A stretch of 64,000 nucleotides of DNA from NCBI RefSeq assembly GCF_003334355.1, contig NZ_QOWP01000014.1. The stretch is one strand, 5' to 3'. This DNA comes from Escherichia coli (lineage in GTDB: Bacteria; Pseudomonadota; Gammaproteobacteria; Enterobacterales; Enterobacteriaceae). The translations under genes and the position numbers were made by a program. Shown here in pieces: positions 13,155-43,955 of the stretch (its first letter is position 1; the number at the start of each line of letters is the position of its first letter). Under the pieces are notes generated by a model. The model saw only the letters and a list, made by a program, of their open reading frames with translations, searched no databases and was not told the DNA's origin.

Positions 13155-13190
13155 TCTGGCGGAGCTCCCAGGCTCCGCCAGATTTATTTA
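13155..13190 (+). terminator. Rho-independent terminator of speED (11-bp stem followed by tttattta)
   Basis: tctggcggagc / gctccgccaga inverted repeat directly after the speD stop, followed by a T-rich run. Confidence 0.65.
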
Positions 13191-18531: not shown

Positions 18532-18542
18532 ATTACAGACGT

Positions 18543-18573
18543 AAAAAAAGCGGCGTGGTTAGCCGCTTTTTTA
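18543..18573. terminator. Bidirectional terminator between convergent yacH and lpd
   Basis: aaaaaaagcggc-gtggtta-gccgctttttt: GC stem flanked by A-run and T-run, so functional in both orientations. Confidence 0.75.
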
Positions 18574-18601
18574 ATTGCCGGATGTTCCGGCAAACGAAAA
18601 A

Positions 18602-20026
18602 TTACTTCTTCTTCGCTTTCGGGTTCGGCAGGTCGGTAATGCTACCTTCGAACACTTCTGCCGCCAGGCCCACAGACTCGTGCAGAGTCGGGTGCGCGTG
18701 GATGGTCAGTGCGATGTCTTCAGCATCACAACCCATTTCGATTGCCAGACCGATTTCACCCAGCAGCTCACCGCCGTTAGTACCGACAATCGCACCACCG
18801 ATCACACGGTGAGATTCTTTGTCGAAAATCAGCTTGGTCATACCGTCTGCGCAGTCGGAAGCGATAGCACGGCCAGAAGCAGCCCACGGGAAGGTGGCGG
18901 TCTCAAAGCTGATGCCTTTCTCTTTCGCTTCTTTCTCAGTCAGACCTACCCATGCAACTTCTGGTTCGGTATAGGCGATGGACGGGATAACTTTCGGATC
19001 GAAGTAATGTTTTTTACCGGCGATAACTTCAGCGGCAACGTGACCTTCGTGAACACCTTTATGTGCCAGCATTGGCTGACCGACGATATCGCCGATAGCA
19101 AAGATGTGCGGTACGTTGGTACGCAGTTGTTTGTCAACGCGGATGAAACCACGGTCGTCAACTTCCACGCCAGCTTTGCCTGCGTCGAGGTTTTTACCGT
19201 TCGGCACACGACCAATCGCTACCAGCACGGCGTCGTAACGCTGCGGTTCAGCGGGTGCTTTTTTGCCTTCCATCGTCACATAAATGCCGTCTTCTTTCGC
19301 TTCAACGGCGGTAACTTTGGTTTCCAGCATCAGGTTGAATTTCTTGCTGATACGCTTGGTGAAGACTTTAACGATGTCTTTGTCAGCTGCCGGGATAACC
19401 TGGTCGAACATTTCAACCACGTCAATCTGTGAACCCAGCGCGTGGTAAACGGTGCCCATTTCCAGACCGATGATACCGCCACCCATTACCAGCAGGCGTT
19501 CTGGTACTTCTTTCAGTTCCAGCGCGTCAGTGGAGTCCCAGATACGCGGATCTTCATGCGGAATAAACGGCAGTTGAATCGGGCGAGAACCCGCTGCAAT
19601 GATCGCGTTGTCGAAGTTGATCACGGTTTTACCGTTCTCACCTTCAACTTCCAGGGTGTTAGCCCCGGTAAATTTACCCAGACCGTTGACCACTTTGACT
19701 TTGCGGCCTTTCGCCATACCAGCCAGACCACCGGTCAGCTGATTGATCACTTTCTCTTTCCAGGTACGAATCTTGTCGATATCGGTTTTCGGTTCGCCAA
19801 AGACGATACCGTGTTCAGCCAGCGCTTTGGCTTCTTCGATAACTTTTGCTACGTGCAGCAGTGCTTTAGAAGGGATACAGCCGACGTTCAGGCAAACACC
19901 GCCAAGGGTGTTGTAACGTTCTACGATTACGGTTTCCAGACCTAAATCAGCGCAACGGAAGGCAGCGGAGTAACCTGCGGGGCCTGCCCCAAGTACCACG
20001 ACCTGAGTTTTGATTTCAGTACTCAT
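18602..20026 (-). CDS. lpd: dihydrolipoyl dehydrogenase (E3 of PDH/OGDH/GCV complexes)
   Basis: ORF-track 485 aa trimmed to MSTEIKTQVVVLGAGPAGYSAAF (474 aa); FAD motif and redox-active CLNVGC. Confidence 0.97.
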   Translation of the reverse strand: MSTEIKTQVVVLGAGPAGYSAAFRCADLGLETVIVERYNTLGGVCLNVGCIPSKALLHVAKVIEEAKALAEHGIVFGEPKTDIDKIRTWKEKVINQLTGGLAGMAKGRKVKVVNGLGKFTGANTLEVEGENGKTVINFDNAIIAAGSRPIQLPFIPHEDPRIWDSTDALELKEVPERLLVMGGGIIGLEMGTVYHALGSQIDVVEMFDQVIPAADKDIVKVFTKRISKKFNLMLETKVTAVEAKEDGIYVTMEGKKAPAEPQRYDAVLVAIGRVPNGKNLDAGKAGVEVDDRGFIRVDKQLRTNVPHIFAIGDIVGQPMLAHKGVHEGHVAAEVIAGKKHYFDPKVIPSIAYTEPEVAWVGLTEKEAKEKGISFETATFPWAASGRAIASDCADGMTKLIFDKESHRVIGGAIVGTNGGELLGEIGLAIEMGCDAEDIALTIHAHPTLHESVGLAAEVFEGSITDLPNPKAKKK

Positions 20027-24921: not shown

Positions 24922-25081
24922 GGGTTATTCCTTATCTATCTAATAACGTTGAGTTTTCTGGAACCTGTCCCATTGAACTCTCGCCGGAAAGCTCAATAAG
25001 ACAGGTTCTACGTTTAGTTGCCGCGCTTTTATATGCGCTTGATTTACAACATCTTCTGGATAATTTTTACCAGAAAAATCA

Positions 25082-27768: not shown

Positions 27769-27793
27769 GCCCTCACCCGTACAGGGTGAGGGC
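27769..27793. terminator. Shared hairpin between convergent aroP and ampE (10-bp perfect stem)
   Basis: gccctcaccc-gtaca-gggtgagggc, 10 bp after the aroP stop and 9 bp before the ampE stop. Confidence 0.6.
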
Positions 27794-32223: not shown

Positions 32224-33415
32224 GCAACTCTGGCGCTGGCATGGCATAACCGGCGACGGCAATGCGCAAGATGGGATGCTATGGGCAGAGAGCCGTACTT
32301 TACTGCTTATGGCACTACAGCAACAGATGGTTACCCCACTAAGCCTGAAGCGAATCGCCATCAATTCTGCGCAGTGGCGAGGAGATAAAAGCGCGGAAGT
32401 CATTCATCAACTGGCGACGCTACTCAAAGCAGGGTTAACGCTTTCTGAAGGGCTGGCTCTGCTGGCGGAACAGCATCCCAGTAAGCAATGGCAAGCGTTG
32501 CTGCAATCGCTGGCGCACGATCTCGAACAGGGCATTGCTTTTTCCAATGCCTTATTACCCTGGTCAGAGGTATTTCCGCCGCTCTATCAGGCGATGATCC
32601 GCACGGGTGAACTGACCGGTAAGCTGGATGAATGCTGCTTTGAACTGGCGCGTCAGCAAAAAGCCCAGCGTCAGTTGACCGACAAAGTGAAATCAGCGTT
32701 ACGTTATCCCATCATCATTTTAGCGATGGCAATCATGGTGGTTGTGGCAATGCTGCATTTTGTTCTGCCGGAGTTTGCCGCTATCTATAAGACCTTCAAC
32801 ACCCCACTACCGGCACTAACGCAGGGGATCATGACGCTGGCAGACTTTAGTGGCGAATGGAGCTGGCTGCTGGTGTTGTTCGGCTTTCTGCTGGCGATAG
32901 CCAATAAGTTGCTGATGCGCCGACCGACCTGGCTTATAGTGCGGCAGAAATTGCTGTTACGCATCCCGATTATGGGTTCACTGATGCGGGGACAAAAACT
33001 CACGCAGATCTTTACGATTCTGGCGCTGACACAAAGTGCAGGCATTATTTTTTTACAGGGCGTAGAGAGCGTCAGAGAAACAATGCGCTGCCCGTACTGG
33101 GTGCAACTTCTGACACAAATCCAGCACGATATCAGTAACGGTCAACCCATCTGGCTGGCGCTAAAAAATACCGGTGAGTTTAGCCCGCTCTGTTTGCAAT
33201 TAGTGAGAACAGGAGAGGCATCCGGCTCTCTGGATCTCATGTTAGACAACCTCGCCCATCATCATCGGGAAAACACAATGGCGCTGGCGGATAACCTCGC
33301 AGCCTTACTGGAACCGGCGTTGCTGATCATAACGGGAGGAATTATTGGTACGCTGGTGGTGGCAATGTATCTGCCAATTTTCCATTTAGGCGATGCGATG
33401 AGTGGGATGGGATAA
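32213..33415 (+). CDS. hofC: type IV pilus / T2SS-like inner membrane platform protein (GspF/PilC family)
   Basis: ORF-track 400 aa recognised as HofC; overlaps hofB by 11 nt. Confidence 0.93.
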   Translation: MASKQLWRWHGITGDGNAQDGMLWAESRTLLLMALQQQMVTPLSLKRIAINSAQWRGDKSAEVIHQLATLLKAGLTLSEGLALLAEQHPSKQWQALLQSLAHDLEQGIAFSNALLPWSEVFPPLYQAMIRTGELTGKLDECCFELARQQKAQRQLTDKVKSALRYPIIILAMAIMVVVAMLHFVLPEFAAIYKTFNTPLPALTQGIMTLADFSGEWSWLLVLFGFLLAIANKLLMRRPTWLIVRQKLLLRIPIMGSLMRGQKLTQIFTILALTQSAGIIFLQGVESVRETMRCPYWVQLLTQIQHDISNGQPIWLALKNTGEFSPLCLQLVRTGEASGSLDLMLDNLAHHHRENTMALADNLAALLEPALLIITGGIIGTLVVAMYLPIFHLGDAMSGMG

Positions 33416-33443
33416 CGCTGGCGTGTTGCTCCACGCCAGCGTT
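33414..33443. terminator. Shared hairpin between convergent hofC and guaC (12-bp stem) overlapping the hofC stop codon
   Basis: aacgctggcgtg-ttgctc-cacgccagcgtt perfect inverted repeat in the 34-bp gap. Confidence 0.6.
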
Positions 33444-36288: not shown

Positions 36289-36304
36289 CATTTGTCTGAT
36301 GCCG

Positions 36305-36510
36305 CACGTAGGCCTGATAAGACGCGGGCAGCGTCGCATCAGGCATCTTGTGCAAATGTCGGATGCGGCGTGAACGCCTTATCTGACCTACAAAAACAAA
36401 TTTATCAATGAGTTATAAATCCCTGTAGGCCTGATAAGACGCGCCAGCGTCGCATCAGGCATCGTGTGCGAATGTCAGATGCGGCGAAAACGCCTTATCT
36501 GACATACACA
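36305..36510. repeat. REP cluster (four REP units, two BIME-like pairs) between yacG and mutT, last unit overlapping the mutT 3-prime end
   Basis: Alternating gtaggcctgataagacgcg...gcgtcgcatcaggc and ggatgcggcg(tg/aa)aacgccttatctgac(c/a)taca units read directly from the sequence. Confidence 0.8.
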
Positions 36511-36906: not shown

Positions 36907-36936
36907 TAAAAAAGGCGCAGAATCCTGCGCCTTTTA
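36907..36936 (-). terminator. Rho-independent terminator after secA (before mutT)
   Basis: aaggcgcag-aatc-ctgcgcctt 9-bp stem; on the minus strand followed by ttttttatagg. Confidence 0.65.
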
Positions 36937-36952
36937 CTTTAACAGTTAGCTT

Positions 36953-39658
36953 TTATTGCAGGCGGCCATGGCACTGCTTGTATTTTTTACCAGAACCGCA
37001 CGGGCAAGGATCGTTACGTCCTACTTTGCGCTCTCCAGTTTGCGCCGCCAGTGCAGCTGCGGCTGCAGAGTCGTCATCCTGATGGCTAAGCTGCTGCATT
37101 TGCGCTAAACGCTCGGCTTCCATACGACGCTGTTGTTCCAGCTCCTCAACCTCTTCAGGCATACGTACCTGGACTTTGCTCAACGTGCTGATAACTTCAT
37201 ATTTTAACGACTCCAGCATCGCTGCAAACATGGAGAACGATTCACGTTTGTATTCCTGCTTCGGATCTTTCTGTGCGTAGCCACGCAGGTGGATACCCTG
37301 ACGCAGATAGTCCATCGCTGCCAGGTGCTCTTTCCACAGGGAGTCAAGCGTTTGCAGCATGACGCCTTTCTCGAAGTGACGCATCATCTCAGCACCAACC
37401 ACTTCTTCTTTACGCTGATACACTTCGATGGACTGCGCCAGAATTCGCTCACGCAGCGTCTCTTCATGCAGTTCTGGTTCTTTATCCAGCCACTCGGCAA
37501 TTGGCAAATCGAGGTCGAAATCGTTCTTCAGACGTTCCTGCAGCCCCGGAATATCCCACATTTCTTCCAGCGACTGTGGTGGAATGTAGGCATCAATGGT
37601 CGCTTTGAACACATCTTCACGAATGCTGTTAATGGTTTCGCTCACATCGCTGACATCCAACAGTTCGTTACGCTGGGAGTAAATGGCGCGACGCTGATCG
37701 TTAGCCACGTCATCATATTCCAGCAGTTGCTTACGAATGTCGAAGTTACGGCTTTCAACTTTACGCTGGGCGTTGGCAATCGCTTTAGTCACCCACGGGT
37801 GTTCAATGGCTTCGCCTGGCTTCATACCCAGTTTACGCATCATGCCGGATACTCGGTCGGAAGCAAAAATACGCATCAGCGCATCTTCCATCGACAGGTA
37901 GAAACGGGAAGAACCAGCATCCCCCTGACGACCAGAACGACCGCGCAACTGGTTATCGATACGACGGGATTCGTGACGCTCGGTACCGATGATATGCAGG
38001 CCACCTGCTTCCAGTACCGCATCGTGACGTACCTGCCAGTCGGCTTTAATTTTTTCAATTTGCTCTGCGGTCGGATTTTCCAGCGCGGCAACTTCTGCCT
38101 GCCAGCTACCACCGAGCACAATATCTGTACCACGACCCGCCATATTGGTCGCGATAGTCACCGCAGCCGGATAACCTGCCTGAGCAACAATCGCCGCTTC
38201 GTTGGCGTGGAATTTGGCGTTCAGGACGTTGTGCTTAATACCGGCTTTGGTCAGTTCGTTTGACACCAGCTCCGATTTTTCGATGGAGATAGTACCCACC
38301 AGCACCGGCTGGCCTTTCGCAGTACGTTCTTTGATATCTTCAATGATCGCCTGAATTTTTTCCGCTTCAGTCATGTAGACCAGGTCCGGCAGATCTTTAC
38401 GAATCATTGGACGGTTGGTCGGAACAACGACGGTATCCAGCTTGTAGATTGAGCTAAATTCGAAAGCTTCGGTATCAGCAGTACCGGTCATCCCCGCCAG
38501 TTTTTCATACAGACGGAAGTAGTTCTGGAAGGTGATCGAAGCCAGCGTTTGGTTTTCGTTCTGGATCTGCACACCTTCTTTCGCTTCCACAGCCTGGTGC
38601 AGACCATCGGACCAGCGACGGCCCTGCATGGTACGACCGGTGTGTTCGTCAACGATGATAACTTCACCATCTTTAACGATGTAGTCGACGTCACGGGTAA
38701 ACAGCGCATGAGCGCGCAGCGCCGCCGTTACGTGGTGCATCAGCATGATGTTGGCCGGAGAGTACAGAGACTCCCCTTCATCCATGATGCCCTCTTTCAC
38801 CAGCAGTTCTTCAATCAGCACCAGACCACGTTCGGTCAGGTTCACCTGGCGAGATTTTTCGTCCACCGAGAAGTGGCCTTCGCCCTGGAAGGTTTCGGAG
38901 TCTTCTTTTTCCTGACGGATCAGGTGCGGAATAATTTTATTCACGCGTTTATACATTTCCGAGCTGTCTTCTGCCGGGCCGGAAATGATCAGCGGTGTAC
39001 GCGCTTCATCGATCAGGATGGAGTCCACTTCGTCCACCAGCGCATAGTGCAGTTTACGCTGTACACGTTCTTCAGGGCTGAACGCCATGTTGTCGCGCAG
39101 GTAGTCAAAGCCGTATTCGTTGTTCGTACCGTAAGTGATGTCAGCTGCGTAAGCTTCGCGCTTTGCCGGTGCTGGCATGCCCGGCAGGTTGATACCGACA
39201 GTCAGGCCAAGGAATTCAAACAGCGGACGGTTGTTTTCGGCGTCACGTTGCGCCAGGTAGTCGTTGACGGTAACTACGTGCACGCCTTTACCGGTTAGTG
39301 CGTTCAGGTAAGCAGGCAGCGTTGCGGTCAGGGTTTTACCTTCACCGGTACGCATTTCGGCGATGCAGCGTTCGTTAAGAACCATACCGCCGAGTAACTG
39401 AACGTCGAAGTGACGCATACCAAAGACGCGCTTACTTGCCTCACGTACCACGGCGAAAGCTTCCGGGATCAGATTTTCCAGCACTTCGCCTTTTTCCAGA
39501 CGTGCACGAAACTCTGCGGTTTTCCCTTTCAGTTCTTCGTCGGAGAGTTTTTCCATCTCCGGTTCCATGGCATTGATGATGTTGACCACTTTGCGCATCC
39601 GGCGCAGGGTGCGATCGTTACGACTACCGAAAACTTTAGTTAATAATTTGATTAGCAT
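36953..39658 (-). CDS. secA: preprotein translocase ATPase SecA
   Basis: ORF-track 901 aa; C-terminal zinc-binding [14 protein letters not shown]; recognised as SecA. Confidence 0.98.
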
Positions 39659-41480: not shown

Positions 41481-42632
41481 TTAATCAGCTTGCTTACGCA
41501 GGAATGCTGGAATATCCAGATAATCCGGCTCTTTCGCAGTTTGCGGCGCATTGTCATTCACGACTTTAGCAATCGGCTTCTGCTCCTGGGTCAGCGGAGC
41601 CATCCCGTGCTGCTGGTAGCGATCCATCACTGGCTGCTGAACCTGCTTATTGGTCACCAGAGTGATTTCAGGACGTTTGTCCATGCCGATACCTGTCGCA
41701 ACAACAGTTACGCGCAGCTCGTCATTCATATCCGGGTCAAGAGAAGTACCGATAACCACGGTCGCGTTGTCGGAAGCAAATGCACGGATGGTGTTACCTA
41801 CCGTTTCGAACTCATCCAGACGCAGGTCGAAGCCCGCTGTGATGTTAACCAGCACGCCGCGTGCGCCAGACAGGTCGATATCTTCCAGCAGCGGAGAAGA
41901 GATAGCCATTTCAGCAGCTTCTTCCGCACGGTCTTCACCGCTCGCCACGCCAGAACCCATCATTGCGTAGCCCATTTCAGACATTACGGTGCGTACGTCT
42001 GCAAAGTCCACGTTCATCAAACCCGGACGAGTAATCAGTTCAGCGATACCTTGCACAGCGCCTTTCAGTACATCGTTCGCTGCGCCAAACGCATCCAGCA
42101 GGGAGATACCGCGGCCCAGAACTTTCAGCAGTTTGTCGTTCGGGATAGTGATCAGAGAGTCCACATGCTTGGACAGTTCAGTGATCCCCTGCTCCGCGAA
42201 TGCCATACGCTTCTTGCCTTCAAAGTTGAAAGGCTTAGTGACGACAGCAACGGTCAGGATACCCAAATCTTTTGCCACTTCAGCGACGACTGGTGCTGCA
42301 CCTGTACCGGTACCACCACCCATACCCGCAGCAATAAAGACCATGTCTGCACCTTCCAGCGCAGCACGCAATGCATCGCGATCCTCATCAGCCGCATTGC
42401 GGCCAACTTCTGGATTAGCGCCAGCGCCCAGTCCTTTGGTGATACCGCTACCGATTTGAATCGTCTGTCCAACCGCTGTTTTACGCAGCGCTTGTGCATC
42501 GGTATTTACCGCGAAGAATTCAACACCTTCAATGCGCTCACGCACCATGTGTTCAACAGCATTACCGCCGCCGCCGCCGACGCCGATGACTTTAATCACC
42601 GCGTCATTGGTAAGTTCCATTGGTTCAAACAT
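41481..42632 (-). CDS. ftsZ: cell division GTPase FtsZ
   Basis: ORF-track 383 aa; tubulin signature GGGTGTG; recognised as FtsZ. Confidence 0.98.
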
Positions 42633-42692
42633 AGTTTCTCTCCGATTTGTGCCTGTCGCCTGAGGCCGTAATCATCGTCGGCCTCATAAAAA

Positions 42693-43955
42693 TTAAAACT
42701 CTTTTCGCAGCCAACTATTGAGTCGCTTGATCCACGAGCCAACTGATGCTGTAACACGTTTTTCTACTTCAGCTTCACCGTTAAGATGTGACTCTTTCCC
42801 ATAGTGAAGCAATCCCACCGCCGTCGAATAATACGGCTCCTGAGCATAATCCGTTAAACCGGTAATGTTCAGCGGCGCGCCGATACGCACTTGCGTATGA
42901 AACACGCGCTGAGCACAGGCTGCAAGACCTTCGATCTGCGCTGCGCCACCGGTTAATACAATGCCTGCCGCCAGGTGATGTTTAACCCCTTGTTGGCGAA
43001 GCTTTTCCTGCAACTGCAATATCTCTTCGTTGACCAGGTTGAGCAGCTCGGTATAGCGCGGCTCGATCACCTCTGCCAGGGTCTGACGTTGCAGACTCCG
43101 CGGCGGACGACCACCTACGCTCGGCACTTCCACGCTCTCATCTTTTCCAACGATGGAACCCAGCGCACAACCGTGGCGAACTTTAATCGCTTCGGCGTCG
43201 CTTGGCGGCGTGCCAAAGGCGTAAGCGATATCACTGGTCACGACATTGCCAGCATAAGGAATTACCTTAGTGTGGCGCAATGCCCCACCGGTATAAACGG
43301 CGATATCCATTGTACCACCACCGATATCGACGACGCAGACACCCAGTTCACGTTCATCTTCCGTCAATACCGAATAACTTGATGCCAGTCCGGCAAATAT
43401 CAGTTGGTCAACTTTCAGCCCACAACGTTCAACCGCTTTGACGATGTTTTTCGCCATATCGTTGTGACATGTGATCAGGTGCACTTTTGCCTGCATCCGC
43501 ACGCCCGAAAGTCCTACCGGATTCTTGATCCCTTCCTGATAGTCAATCGCATACTCTTGCGGGATCACATGCAGCACACGATGCTCATCGCGCACACGCA
43601 CCGATTTCGCGGTGTGGACGACGTTTTCCACATCTTCTTGCGTTACTTCTTCTTCAGAAATAGGCACCATACCAATTTCATTCTGGCAGCTGATGTGCTT
43701 ACCAGAAAGCGCCAGATATACCGAAGAGATCTGACAATCTGCCATCAATTCTGCCTGGTCAATGGCGCGTTGTACGCACTTGACCACGGATTCGAGGTCG
43801 TTCACCCCGCCTTTATCCATACCACGCGACGGGCAGCTGCCCACGCCAATGATATTGACCATACCGTCGGGCAGAACTTCCCCTACTAAAGCGGCAACCT
43901 TCGCGGTACCAATCTCCAGTCCTACTACCAGTTTTCTGTCCGTCGCCTTGATCAT
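42693..43955 (-). CDS. ftsA: cell division protein FtsA (actin-like ATPase)
   Basis: ORF-track 420 aa starting [27 protein letters not shown], recognised as FtsA. Confidence 0.98.

Follow-up and report, generated by a model that had tools for sequence, protein, structure and literature searches.

Does a compact hairpin placed between two convergent genes end both transcripts, and by what means where no U-tract follows it? The aroP/ampE junction of Escherichia coli raises this question, as do several other gene pairs in the same 64,000-nucleotide stretch of DNA, the whole of which was analyzed here (the window). An initial annotation had assigned single hairpins to the can/hpt, yacH/lpd, aroP/ampE, and hofC/guaC gaps and regarded them as shared. 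The window corresponds to about 84-148 kb of K-12 MG1655, read as the reverse complement, and a 2-kb probe taken from it has a match in 5425 of 5426 complete E. coli genomes. For a window position w, the K-12 coordinate is 147938 - w until the pdhR/aroP spacer and 147937 - w past it. The record of the near-identical E. coli strain PSS-12, which keeps register with the window between bases 159 and 40000 and differs from it there by 9 SNPs, served as the source of annotation. The can/hpt, speD/yacL, aroP/ampE, and hofC/guaC gaps have the same sequence in K-12, and the sole difference in the yacH/lpd gap, at position 18535, lies outside the hairpins.

We combined the sequence with published K-12 Term-seq and DirectRNA-seq data obtained with and without bicyclomycin (Adams et al. 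2021, eLife, PMC7815308), in which the bicyclomycin comparison was grown in LB and the Term-seq sheets cover LB 0.4 and M63. The hairpins, their covarying conservation, and the C-richness of the RNA downstream, together with the mapped 3' ends and the response of can, guaC, and ampE read-through to bicyclomycin, are read from the sequence or from these published data. Rho-region positions are approximate because the scores derive from 800-nt comparison windows (Adams et al. 2021, PMC7815308). The 3' ends of ampE, hofC, yacH, yacL, and lpd are absent from the Term-seq lists of that study, and the TERMITe supplements make no mention of these genes. For comparison across species, an AroP genome scan provided 80 Enterobacterales loci with flanks of up to 10 kb, in which gene ends were placed by tblastn and ORF extension. 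This set covers aroP/ampE, hofC/guaC, and lpd; can/hpt and speD/yacL fall outside the 10-kb flanks.

Each gap was folded on both strands and compared with 200 dinucleotide shuffles. Five gaps, speD/yacL included, contain GC-rich stem-loops with stems of 5-12 bp and loops of 3-7 nt. Their folds give z scores of -4.5 to -6.9 (can/hpt, -5.3 and -4.5 on the two strands; aroP/ampE, -6.9 on the + strand and -5.3 on the - strand; hofC/guaC, -5.5 and -6.4), and the aroP/ampE hairpin has an energy of about -22 to -23.5 kcal/mol. Chance palindromes were rejected as an explanation, as 0 of 200 shuffles folded as well on either strand. An Rfam search returned no family match at any hairpin site.

The sequence, the gene annotation, and the folds place the four hairpins where the initial annotation had put them, apart from the end it gave for the yacH/lpd element, 18573, which is one base over. 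Its range of gap lengths, 34-70 bp, is correct (can/hpt, 40; yacH/lpd, 70; aroP/ampE, 42; hofC/guaC, 34), as is its statement that the hofC/guaC hairpin overlaps the hofC stop: the stem begins inside the TAA at 33413-33415 and overlaps it by 2 nt, or by 3 if a U-G pair is counted. The claim of one hairpin per gap fails at yacH/lpd, where a second hairpin lies on the lpd-proximal side. The list of convergent pairs was also incomplete, in that it omitted speD/yacL, and panD/yadE, gcd/cueO, and yacG/mutT are convergent as well.

Table 1. Hairpins, mRNA 3' ends, and Rho regions at convergent gene pairs in the window. Mean reads are from Adams et al. 2021 (PMC7815308).
Feature	Window position (strand)	K-12 position (strand)	Sequence or structure	Details
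panD 3'-end hairpin	1636-1658 (+)			inside convergent yadE coding region; gap 3 bp
panD mRNA 3' end	1663/2 (+)	146275/6 (-)	5 nt past stem	mean reads 125,366 (LB 0.4); 68,010 (M63)
can and hpt gene ends	5930; 5971			
can/hpt hairpin	5939-5961		TGCCGGATG-CAACA-CATCCGGCA	9 bp stem, 5 nt loop
can mRNA 3' end	5965/4 (+)	141973/4 (-)	4 nt past stem	mean reads 281,346 (LB 0.4)
hpt mRNA 3' end	5935 (-)	142003 (+)	4 nt past stem	mean reads 1,247 (LB 0.4)
Rho region, can read-through	6068 (+)	141870 (-)		score 8.7, p 1.9e-50; approximate
speD/yacL hairpin	13155-13182		12 bp stem	gap 37 bp; U-tract on speD side only, 6/8
speD mRNA 3' end	13187/6 (+)	134751/2 (-)	4-5 nt past stem	mean reads 45,215 (LB 0.4); 36,172 (M63)
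yacH and lpd gene ends	18531; 18602			
yacH/lpd terminator	18543-18572		A7 (18543-18549), GCGGC, GTGGTTA, GCCGC, T6 (18567-18572)	
Second yacH/lpd hairpin	18576-18594		TTGCCGGA-TGT-TCCGGCAA	lpd-proximal, no U-tract
Rho region past lpd terminator	18539 (-)	129399 (+)		score 2.5, p 2.7e-6
aroP and ampE gene ends	27759 (+); 27802 (-)			
aroP/ampE hairpin	27769-27793		GCCCTCACCC-GTACA-GGGTGAGGGC	10 bp stem, 5 nt loop
aroP mRNA 3' end	27797 (+)	120140 (-)	4 nt past stem, …GGGUGAGGGCAAUA	mean reads 69,988 (M63 sheet only)
Rho region, antisense to aroP	27340 (-)	120597 (+)		score 4.0, p 3e-7; approximate
hofC and guaC gene ends	33415; 33450			
hofC/guaC hairpin	33414-33443		AACGCTGGCGTG-TTGCTC-CACGCCAGCGTT	12 bp stem, 6 nt loop
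guaC mRNA 3' end	33411 (-)	114526 (+)	3 nt past stem	mean reads 753 (M63)
Rho region, guaC hairpin	33407 (-)	114530 (+)		score 4.8, p 5.6e-12

We defined a U-tract as at least 5 U per 8 nt, starting 0-2 nt from the stem, and counted it after removing non-GC terminal pairs from the stem bases. A consensus terminator scan probably misses the lpd terminator because its A and T runs are absorbed into the stem. By the U count, whether a hairpin is a canonical intrinsic terminator depends on the transcript that is read: the lpd, yacH, and speD transcripts carry a U-tract, and those of can, ampE, hofC, and guaC do not. The counts are 2-3 U in 8 nt for can, 1 for ampE, 2 for hofC, and 2-3 for guaC. 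Two tails are borderline, namely the weak AAUAAUCUUU of aroP (5/8 U) and the run UGGCAUUUUUAUUU of hpt, which is offset by 5 nt from the stem (4-5/8 U).

The yacH/lpd element is a canonical bidirectional intrinsic terminator, with a 5-bp GC stem, a 7-nt loop, and U-tracts of 7/8 on the lpd side and 6/8 on the yacH side. It is the only element with U-tracts on both strands, in agreement with the earlier observation that A and T runs flank both sides of this hairpin alone. The other gaps differ from a canonical bidirectional terminator in that A or T runs are missing on at least one side; this much of the initial annotation was borne out, although at hofC/guaC both sides, and not one, are without a U-tract. 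The lpd terminator leaks into a Rho-dependent backstop, seen as a bicyclomycin-sensitive region past the hairpin. The lpd 3' end is absent from the curated Term-seq lists, so the terminator has no direct 3'-end confirmation there (PMC7815308). An lpd-strand hairpin with a U-tract is present in 48 of 53 Enterobacterales taxa, 27 of which have U-tracts on both strands. It is kept whatever gene comes next, yacH being rarely present, and its sequence turns over. The second, lpd-proximal hairpin is degenerate in E. coli lineage L004.

For U-less transcripts, the bicyclomycin data place Rho-termination regions at the hairpin or beyond it. The can read-through is halted in a region antisense to hpt, about 107 nt beyond the can hairpin, and the guaC Rho region peaks 4 nt further than the guaC 3' end. 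On the other strand of the aroP/ampE gap, ampDE read-through is halted antisense to aroP, 462 nt beyond the ampE stop. Past the hpt hairpin, on the strand antisense to can, no Rho region is listed (Adams et al. 2021, PMC7815308). Nor is one listed antisense to ampE, downstream of aroP, in an assay performed in LB, whereas the aroP end was detected in M63 only. Strongly C-rich, G-poor RNA follows the hairpin for exactly the three abundant U-less 3' ends. In the 100 nt past the hairpin, C minus G is +15 for can, +15 for aroP, and +18 for guaC (top 2.8%, 2.8%, and 1.0% of all 100-nt windows on both strands), whereas hpt (-13), ampE (-1), and hofC (-8) give negative values.

The initial annotation had proposed Term-seq with and without bicyclomycin as a check. 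That experiment is already published, with Rho regions reported for can and guaC and for read-through from ampE and lpd (PMC7815308). Its data, obtained on identical K-12 sequence, agree with the suggestion that U-less sides imply dependence on Rho for one partner. The alternative offered alongside it, structure-only termination, finds no support. Shared use of a hairpin is documented at can/hpt alone, with a mapped 3' end for each gene; at aroP/ampE and hofC/guaC the end of a single partner is seen.

Taken together, these hairpins are probably ordinary mRNA 3'-end stem-loops of two kinds: a two-way terminator at yacH/lpd and, at can, aroP, and guaC, U-less stems that protect transcripts terminated by Rho. 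The convergent gaps are so short that transcription from either side must cross the palindromic DNA. RNA polymerase would run past the can, aroP, or guaC hairpin and transcribe the partner gene in antisense, where Rho would load on untranslated, C-rich, G-poor RNA just downstream and release the transcript within roughly 100-500 nt. Exonucleases acting 3' to 5' would then trim the transcript back until blocked by the stem, so that the stable mRNA end would lie 3-4 nt past it. In the opposite direction, ampE transcripts would read through the complement of the aroP hairpin and be halted by Rho inside antisense aroP. Transcripts of hpt would stop at the same hairpin as those of can, and the offset U-run may contribute. 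Expression of hofC is not detectable.

This scheme follows a described class of Rho-dependent transcripts, whose sharply defined 3' ends closely follow stable stem-loops that have no U-rich tail (Dar & Sorek 2018, NAR, PMC6061677). In that class, the stem-loops shield the RNA against PNPase and RNase II, and rut sites come directly after them (Dar & Sorek 2018, PMC6061677). The can and guaC ends share with it the U-less stem, the precise end, the sensitivity to bicyclomycin, and the C-rich downstream RNA, and aroP matches in its U-less stem (with a weak tail), precise end, and C-rich downstream RNA (PMC6061677). Nothing essential differs. Rho loading here would take place on the antisense strand of the convergent gene, and the palindrome faces the partner's transcript too. 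By analogy with Dar & Sorek (2018), the Rho-side hairpin is most likely not a terminator but the point at which exonucleases halt, which would set the stable 3' end. We infer exonuclease trimming at the can, aroP, and guaC sites, as well as the Rho dependence of aroP and the mode of termination at hpt. For aroP the scheme predicts Rho termination downstream, within antisense ampE.

We next consider to which gene each hairpin belongs. Conservation is of a kind specific to the gene: lpd keeps its U-tract, guaC and hofC keep a hairpin with a U-tract for neither, and the aroP hairpin is kept without ampE. In E. coli the aroP/ampE junction occurs once per genome, and 5424 of 5426 genomes have it. 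Within the 80-locus scan, however, aroP faces ampE directly only in Escherichia and scattered other genera; in most Enterobacteriaceae and in Pantoea, about 2.5 kb separate the two genes, with coding sequences for a GPH-family symporter and a GH43 hydrolase that share the strand of aroP. Among taxa in which aroP has no adjacent ampE, a hairpin of -12 kcal/mol or lower follows aroP in 57 of 60, with a U-tract in 24 of 60. A homologous hairpin with compensatory changes was found in 17 Enterobacteriaceae, with arms such as CCCTCACCC, CCCTCTCCC, CCCCCACC, and CCCCTTCC, each paired to its complement. In the alignment of this stem, 7 of 10 pairs show double changes and 92.3% of cells are paired, and 0 of 500 shuffles reach the observed covariation score or percentage paired.

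Because the aroP hairpin is kept where 2.5 kb separates aroP from ampE, it is aroP's own 3' element. In taxa with the insert, ampE has its own REPs or terminators, and in other genera with aroP-ampE adjacency, the gap contains unrelated hairpins, often with A and T runs. Judging from this distribution, ampE probably came to face the aroP hairpin in Escherichia after loss of the insert.

Where the hofC/guaC gap is at most 45 nt (41 taxa), it holds a hairpin of -12 kcal/mol or lower in 37, and in 36 of the 41 neither strand has a U-tract. The stems vary widely between taxa (GCTGGCG, CAGGCGCAG, ACGGGTGCA, GATGACGCAGC, GGGGCGC). MAFFT with RNAalifold on all 42 hofC/guaC gaps yields only 5 pairs because distant stems are misaligned; covariation was assessed on a 20-sequence Enterobacteriaceae alignment with explicit structure and by alignment-free folding of each species. 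In that alignment, both members have changed in 7 of 12 pairs and pairing is kept in 89.9% of cells, values of covariation score and percentage paired that 0 of 500 shuffles reach, and shifting the partner by 1-3 columns lowers pairing to 18-45%. E. coli lineage L004 carries a C-G to U-A swap in this stem. In species in which the two genes lie apart, a hairpin stays with guaC in one locus (L038) and with hofC in two others (L060 and L068).

This hairpin, kept in more than 35 species of Enterobacteriaceae and Erwiniaceae with extensive turnover of its stem, could be more than the protective stem-loop of guaC, namely a shared, factor-independent two-way barrier under dual selection, which we regard as doubtful. 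If so, it would serve as a pause or collision site and as the 3'-end protector of both mRNAs. On that view, the loss of 2.5 kb in Escherichia would turn aroP/ampE into a natural experiment on how a new convergent neighbor takes over the hairpin of one gene.

The main rival explanation for the whole set is bidirectional termination driven by collision, in which the hairpin pauses polymerase from either side, head-on collision follows, and trailing polymerases dislodge the collided ones, which would yield overlapping 3' ends with no need for Rho or a U-tract. Two reports define a collision class for exactly such an arrangement in E. coli, require the stem-loop, and describe many terminators of convergent pairs as Rho independent (Ju et al. 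2019; Wang et al. 2022, bioRxiv 10.1101/2022.10.23.513370). The gaps studied here resemble the SEnd-seq class of Ju et al. (2019) and that of Wang et al. (2022) in their short length, their single stem-loop of non-intrinsic appearance, and, at can/hpt, their overlapping ends. Both can/hpt 3' ends are mapped and flank the hairpin with a 31-nt overlap centered on it, which fits collision, as does the lack of U-tracts on both strands of hofC/guaC in most of the species compared. Unlike the class outlined in those reports, however, can and guaC read-through depends on bicyclomycin (scores of 8.7 and 4.8), and two of the pairs show the 3' end of one partner only. Collision requires both genes to be transcribed, yet no hofC or ampE 3' end was detected at the hairpins. 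The ppdD-hofBC operon is silent in laboratory K-12. Further, the aroP hairpin is kept in taxa in which the next gene is co-directional, so that a convergent partner is not needed. We therefore consider collision an unlikely explanation for these hairpins as a group, in comparison with Rho termination followed by protection of the end.

Direct release of polymerase at the hairpins, by GC stems acting with NusA, NusG, and imperfect tails such as those of aroP and hpt, appears improbable. The terminator-like calls of the consensus scan, at 27769-27793 (+ strand only) and 5961-5939(-), favor such weak intrinsic termination, and the lack of a listed Rho region for either hpt or aroP counts toward it. 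The precise 3' ends just past the stems also fit; the same 3-5 nt from stem to end is found at the U-tract terminator of speD, however, and the distance therefore does not discriminate between mechanisms. Against this reading, the number of U past the stem never exceeds 3 in 8 nt for can, guaC, ampE, or hofC, and the hpt 3' end, at …GGCAUGGC, lies upstream of the hpt U-run. The rise in read-through at can and guaC under bicyclomycin and the C-rich, rut-like RNA past the can, aroP, and guaC hairpins also count against it.

REP elements offer another comparison. REP and BIME sequences have been described as 3'-UTR stabilizers and partial Rho-dependent terminators (bioRxiv 10.64898/2026.03.23.713779), and like them, the hairpins considered here are extragenic palindromes, of the sort concentrated between convergent and tandem genes, that would combine a block to decay with attenuation of read-through (10.64898/2026.03.23.713779). 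The can/hpt and lpd-proximal hairpins share with REP only an arm of 8-12 nt (GCCGGATG), and unlike REP, a dispersed palindrome of about 35 nt, the four hairpins are single, short, and locus specific. The aroP hairpin was also tried as a dispersed repeat and rejected, since GGGTGAGGGC matches 5 times where 3.4 matches are expected, and each genome has one copy of the junction. An origin or role at the level of DNA, as mobile REP-like remnants or as protein-binding or cruciform sites whose position at gene ends is incidental, is highly improbable: GCCGGATG, which forms the 5' arm of REP, is found in the window 10 times where 3.1 are expected, and two other convergent gaps, gcd/cueO and yacG/mutT, hold full REP arrays in about 200 bp each, but the REP-derived Rfam model naRNA4 matches only at 36311-36504, the aroP arm is not dispersed, RNA 3' ends map exactly at the stems, and covariation keeps the pairing while the sequence changes, although strictly this last point also fits a DNA cruciform.

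With probable protection of Rho-terminated ends at can, aroP, and guaC beside a two-way terminator at yacH/lpd, these hairpins are real and functional and belong to a class already known (Dar & Sorek 2018; Ju et al. 2019). Published tables likewise give the 3' ends and Rho regions of these very loci (PMC7815308). Convergent E. coli genes have hundreds of bidirectional or overlapping terminators between them, with 306 in one sequence-based study. What this analysis adds is small: ownership of the aroP hairpin is asymmetric, the U-less hofC/guaC hairpin is deeply conserved, and aroP is predicted to be terminated by Rho.

The relevance of these results beyond correct annotation is small. A single 30-kb stretch displays known E. 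coli modes of ending convergent transcripts side by side, as a two-way terminator, as U-less hairpins with Rho, and as REP arrays. The presence of a hairpin between convergent genes does not justify annotating it as a shared terminator, as its ownership can be asymmetric, and the true point of termination can fall hundreds of nucleotides inside the neighboring gene.

Of the canonical terminators in the window, the best is the hairpin at positions 18543-18572, in the gap between yacH and lpd. The built-in terminator scan of the window did not call it, likely because its A7 run pairs with its T6 run, so that both are scored as part of the stem and no T-rich tail is left. The Term-seq lists of Adams et al. 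2021 (PMC7815308) for K-12 contain no 3' end for lpd (window 18543-18605, K-12 129336-129395), and a Rho region just past the terminator is the sole report of the lpd end in that study (PMC7815308). The 3' end is missing from these lists despite a canonical terminator and high lpd expression; a technical bias against U-rich ends can only be guessed at as the cause. The first 120 nt of the lpd 3' flank in L004, the locus from the GTDB E. coli representative, differ from those of the window. There, lpd is followed by a hairpin (AAGAAGCGGC…GCCGCTTC) without a T-run, and then by another hairpin and a REP element. Hence E. coli is not fixed for the canonical lpd terminator.

A second, lpd-proximal hairpin in the same gap (18576-18594) shares GCCGGATG with the 5' arm of the gcd/cueO REP (9139-9150), and the can/hpt hairpin (5939-5961) carries the version CATGCCGGATGC. 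The window contains 10 copies of GCCGGATG versus 3.1 expected. The two short hairpins may descend from REPs, or they may converge on the same stem. REP/BIME arrays (dispersed extragenic palindromes) fill the two wide convergent gaps of the window, gcd/cueO and yacG/mutT. The Rfam matches to tp2, STnc40, and PssrA bear no relation to the convergent-gap hairpins.

REP/BIME arrays and Rfam matches in the window
Feature	Window position	Strand	Location	Basis
REP/BIME array	9104-9304		fills gcd/cueO gap	
REP/BIME array	36289-36494		fills yacG/mutT gap	
naRNA4	36311-36388 and 36428-36504	-		Rfam match
tp2	24924-25037	+	aceE-pdhR interval	Rfam gathering score
STnc40	36908-36977	-	secA/mutT region	Rfam gathering score
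PssrA	42624-42713	-	inside ftsZ/ftsA region	Rfam gathering score

Only 3 bp separate panD from yadE. The panD hairpin, GCGGCTGG-TTACTCA-CCAGCCGC, sits within the yadE coding region (window 1636-1663, including the 3' end); Term-seq places the panD 3' end past it, at 1663, with a Rho region farther into antisense yadE at K-12 145798 (Adams et al., PMC7815308).

At another convergent junction, the hofC/guaC gap of an Enterobacter cancerogenus contig (L068, guaC 3' flank) is filled by a (GATGGCT)n tandem repeat.

In most Enterobacteriaceae and Pantoea, about 2.5 kb separates aroP from ampE (e.g., L017:2770-5364; most loci from L006 to L065 of the AroP scan). Genes in this insert, on the aroP strand, code for a symporter of the GPH family (MelB/YicJ-like) and a GH43 glycoside hydrolase. 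Among taxa carrying it, loci L006-L030 have a conserved motif, TGTTACCTGCCTCACACTTTCC, 3' of the aroP hairpin and about 35 to 60 nt past the aroP stop (e.g., L007:11410-11432), which may be a promoter or operator of the downstream symporter gene. The motif is not present in the window. Escherichia (the window, L004, and L005) lacks the insert, and the convergent aroP/ampE junction is therefore probably a derived state in this genus.
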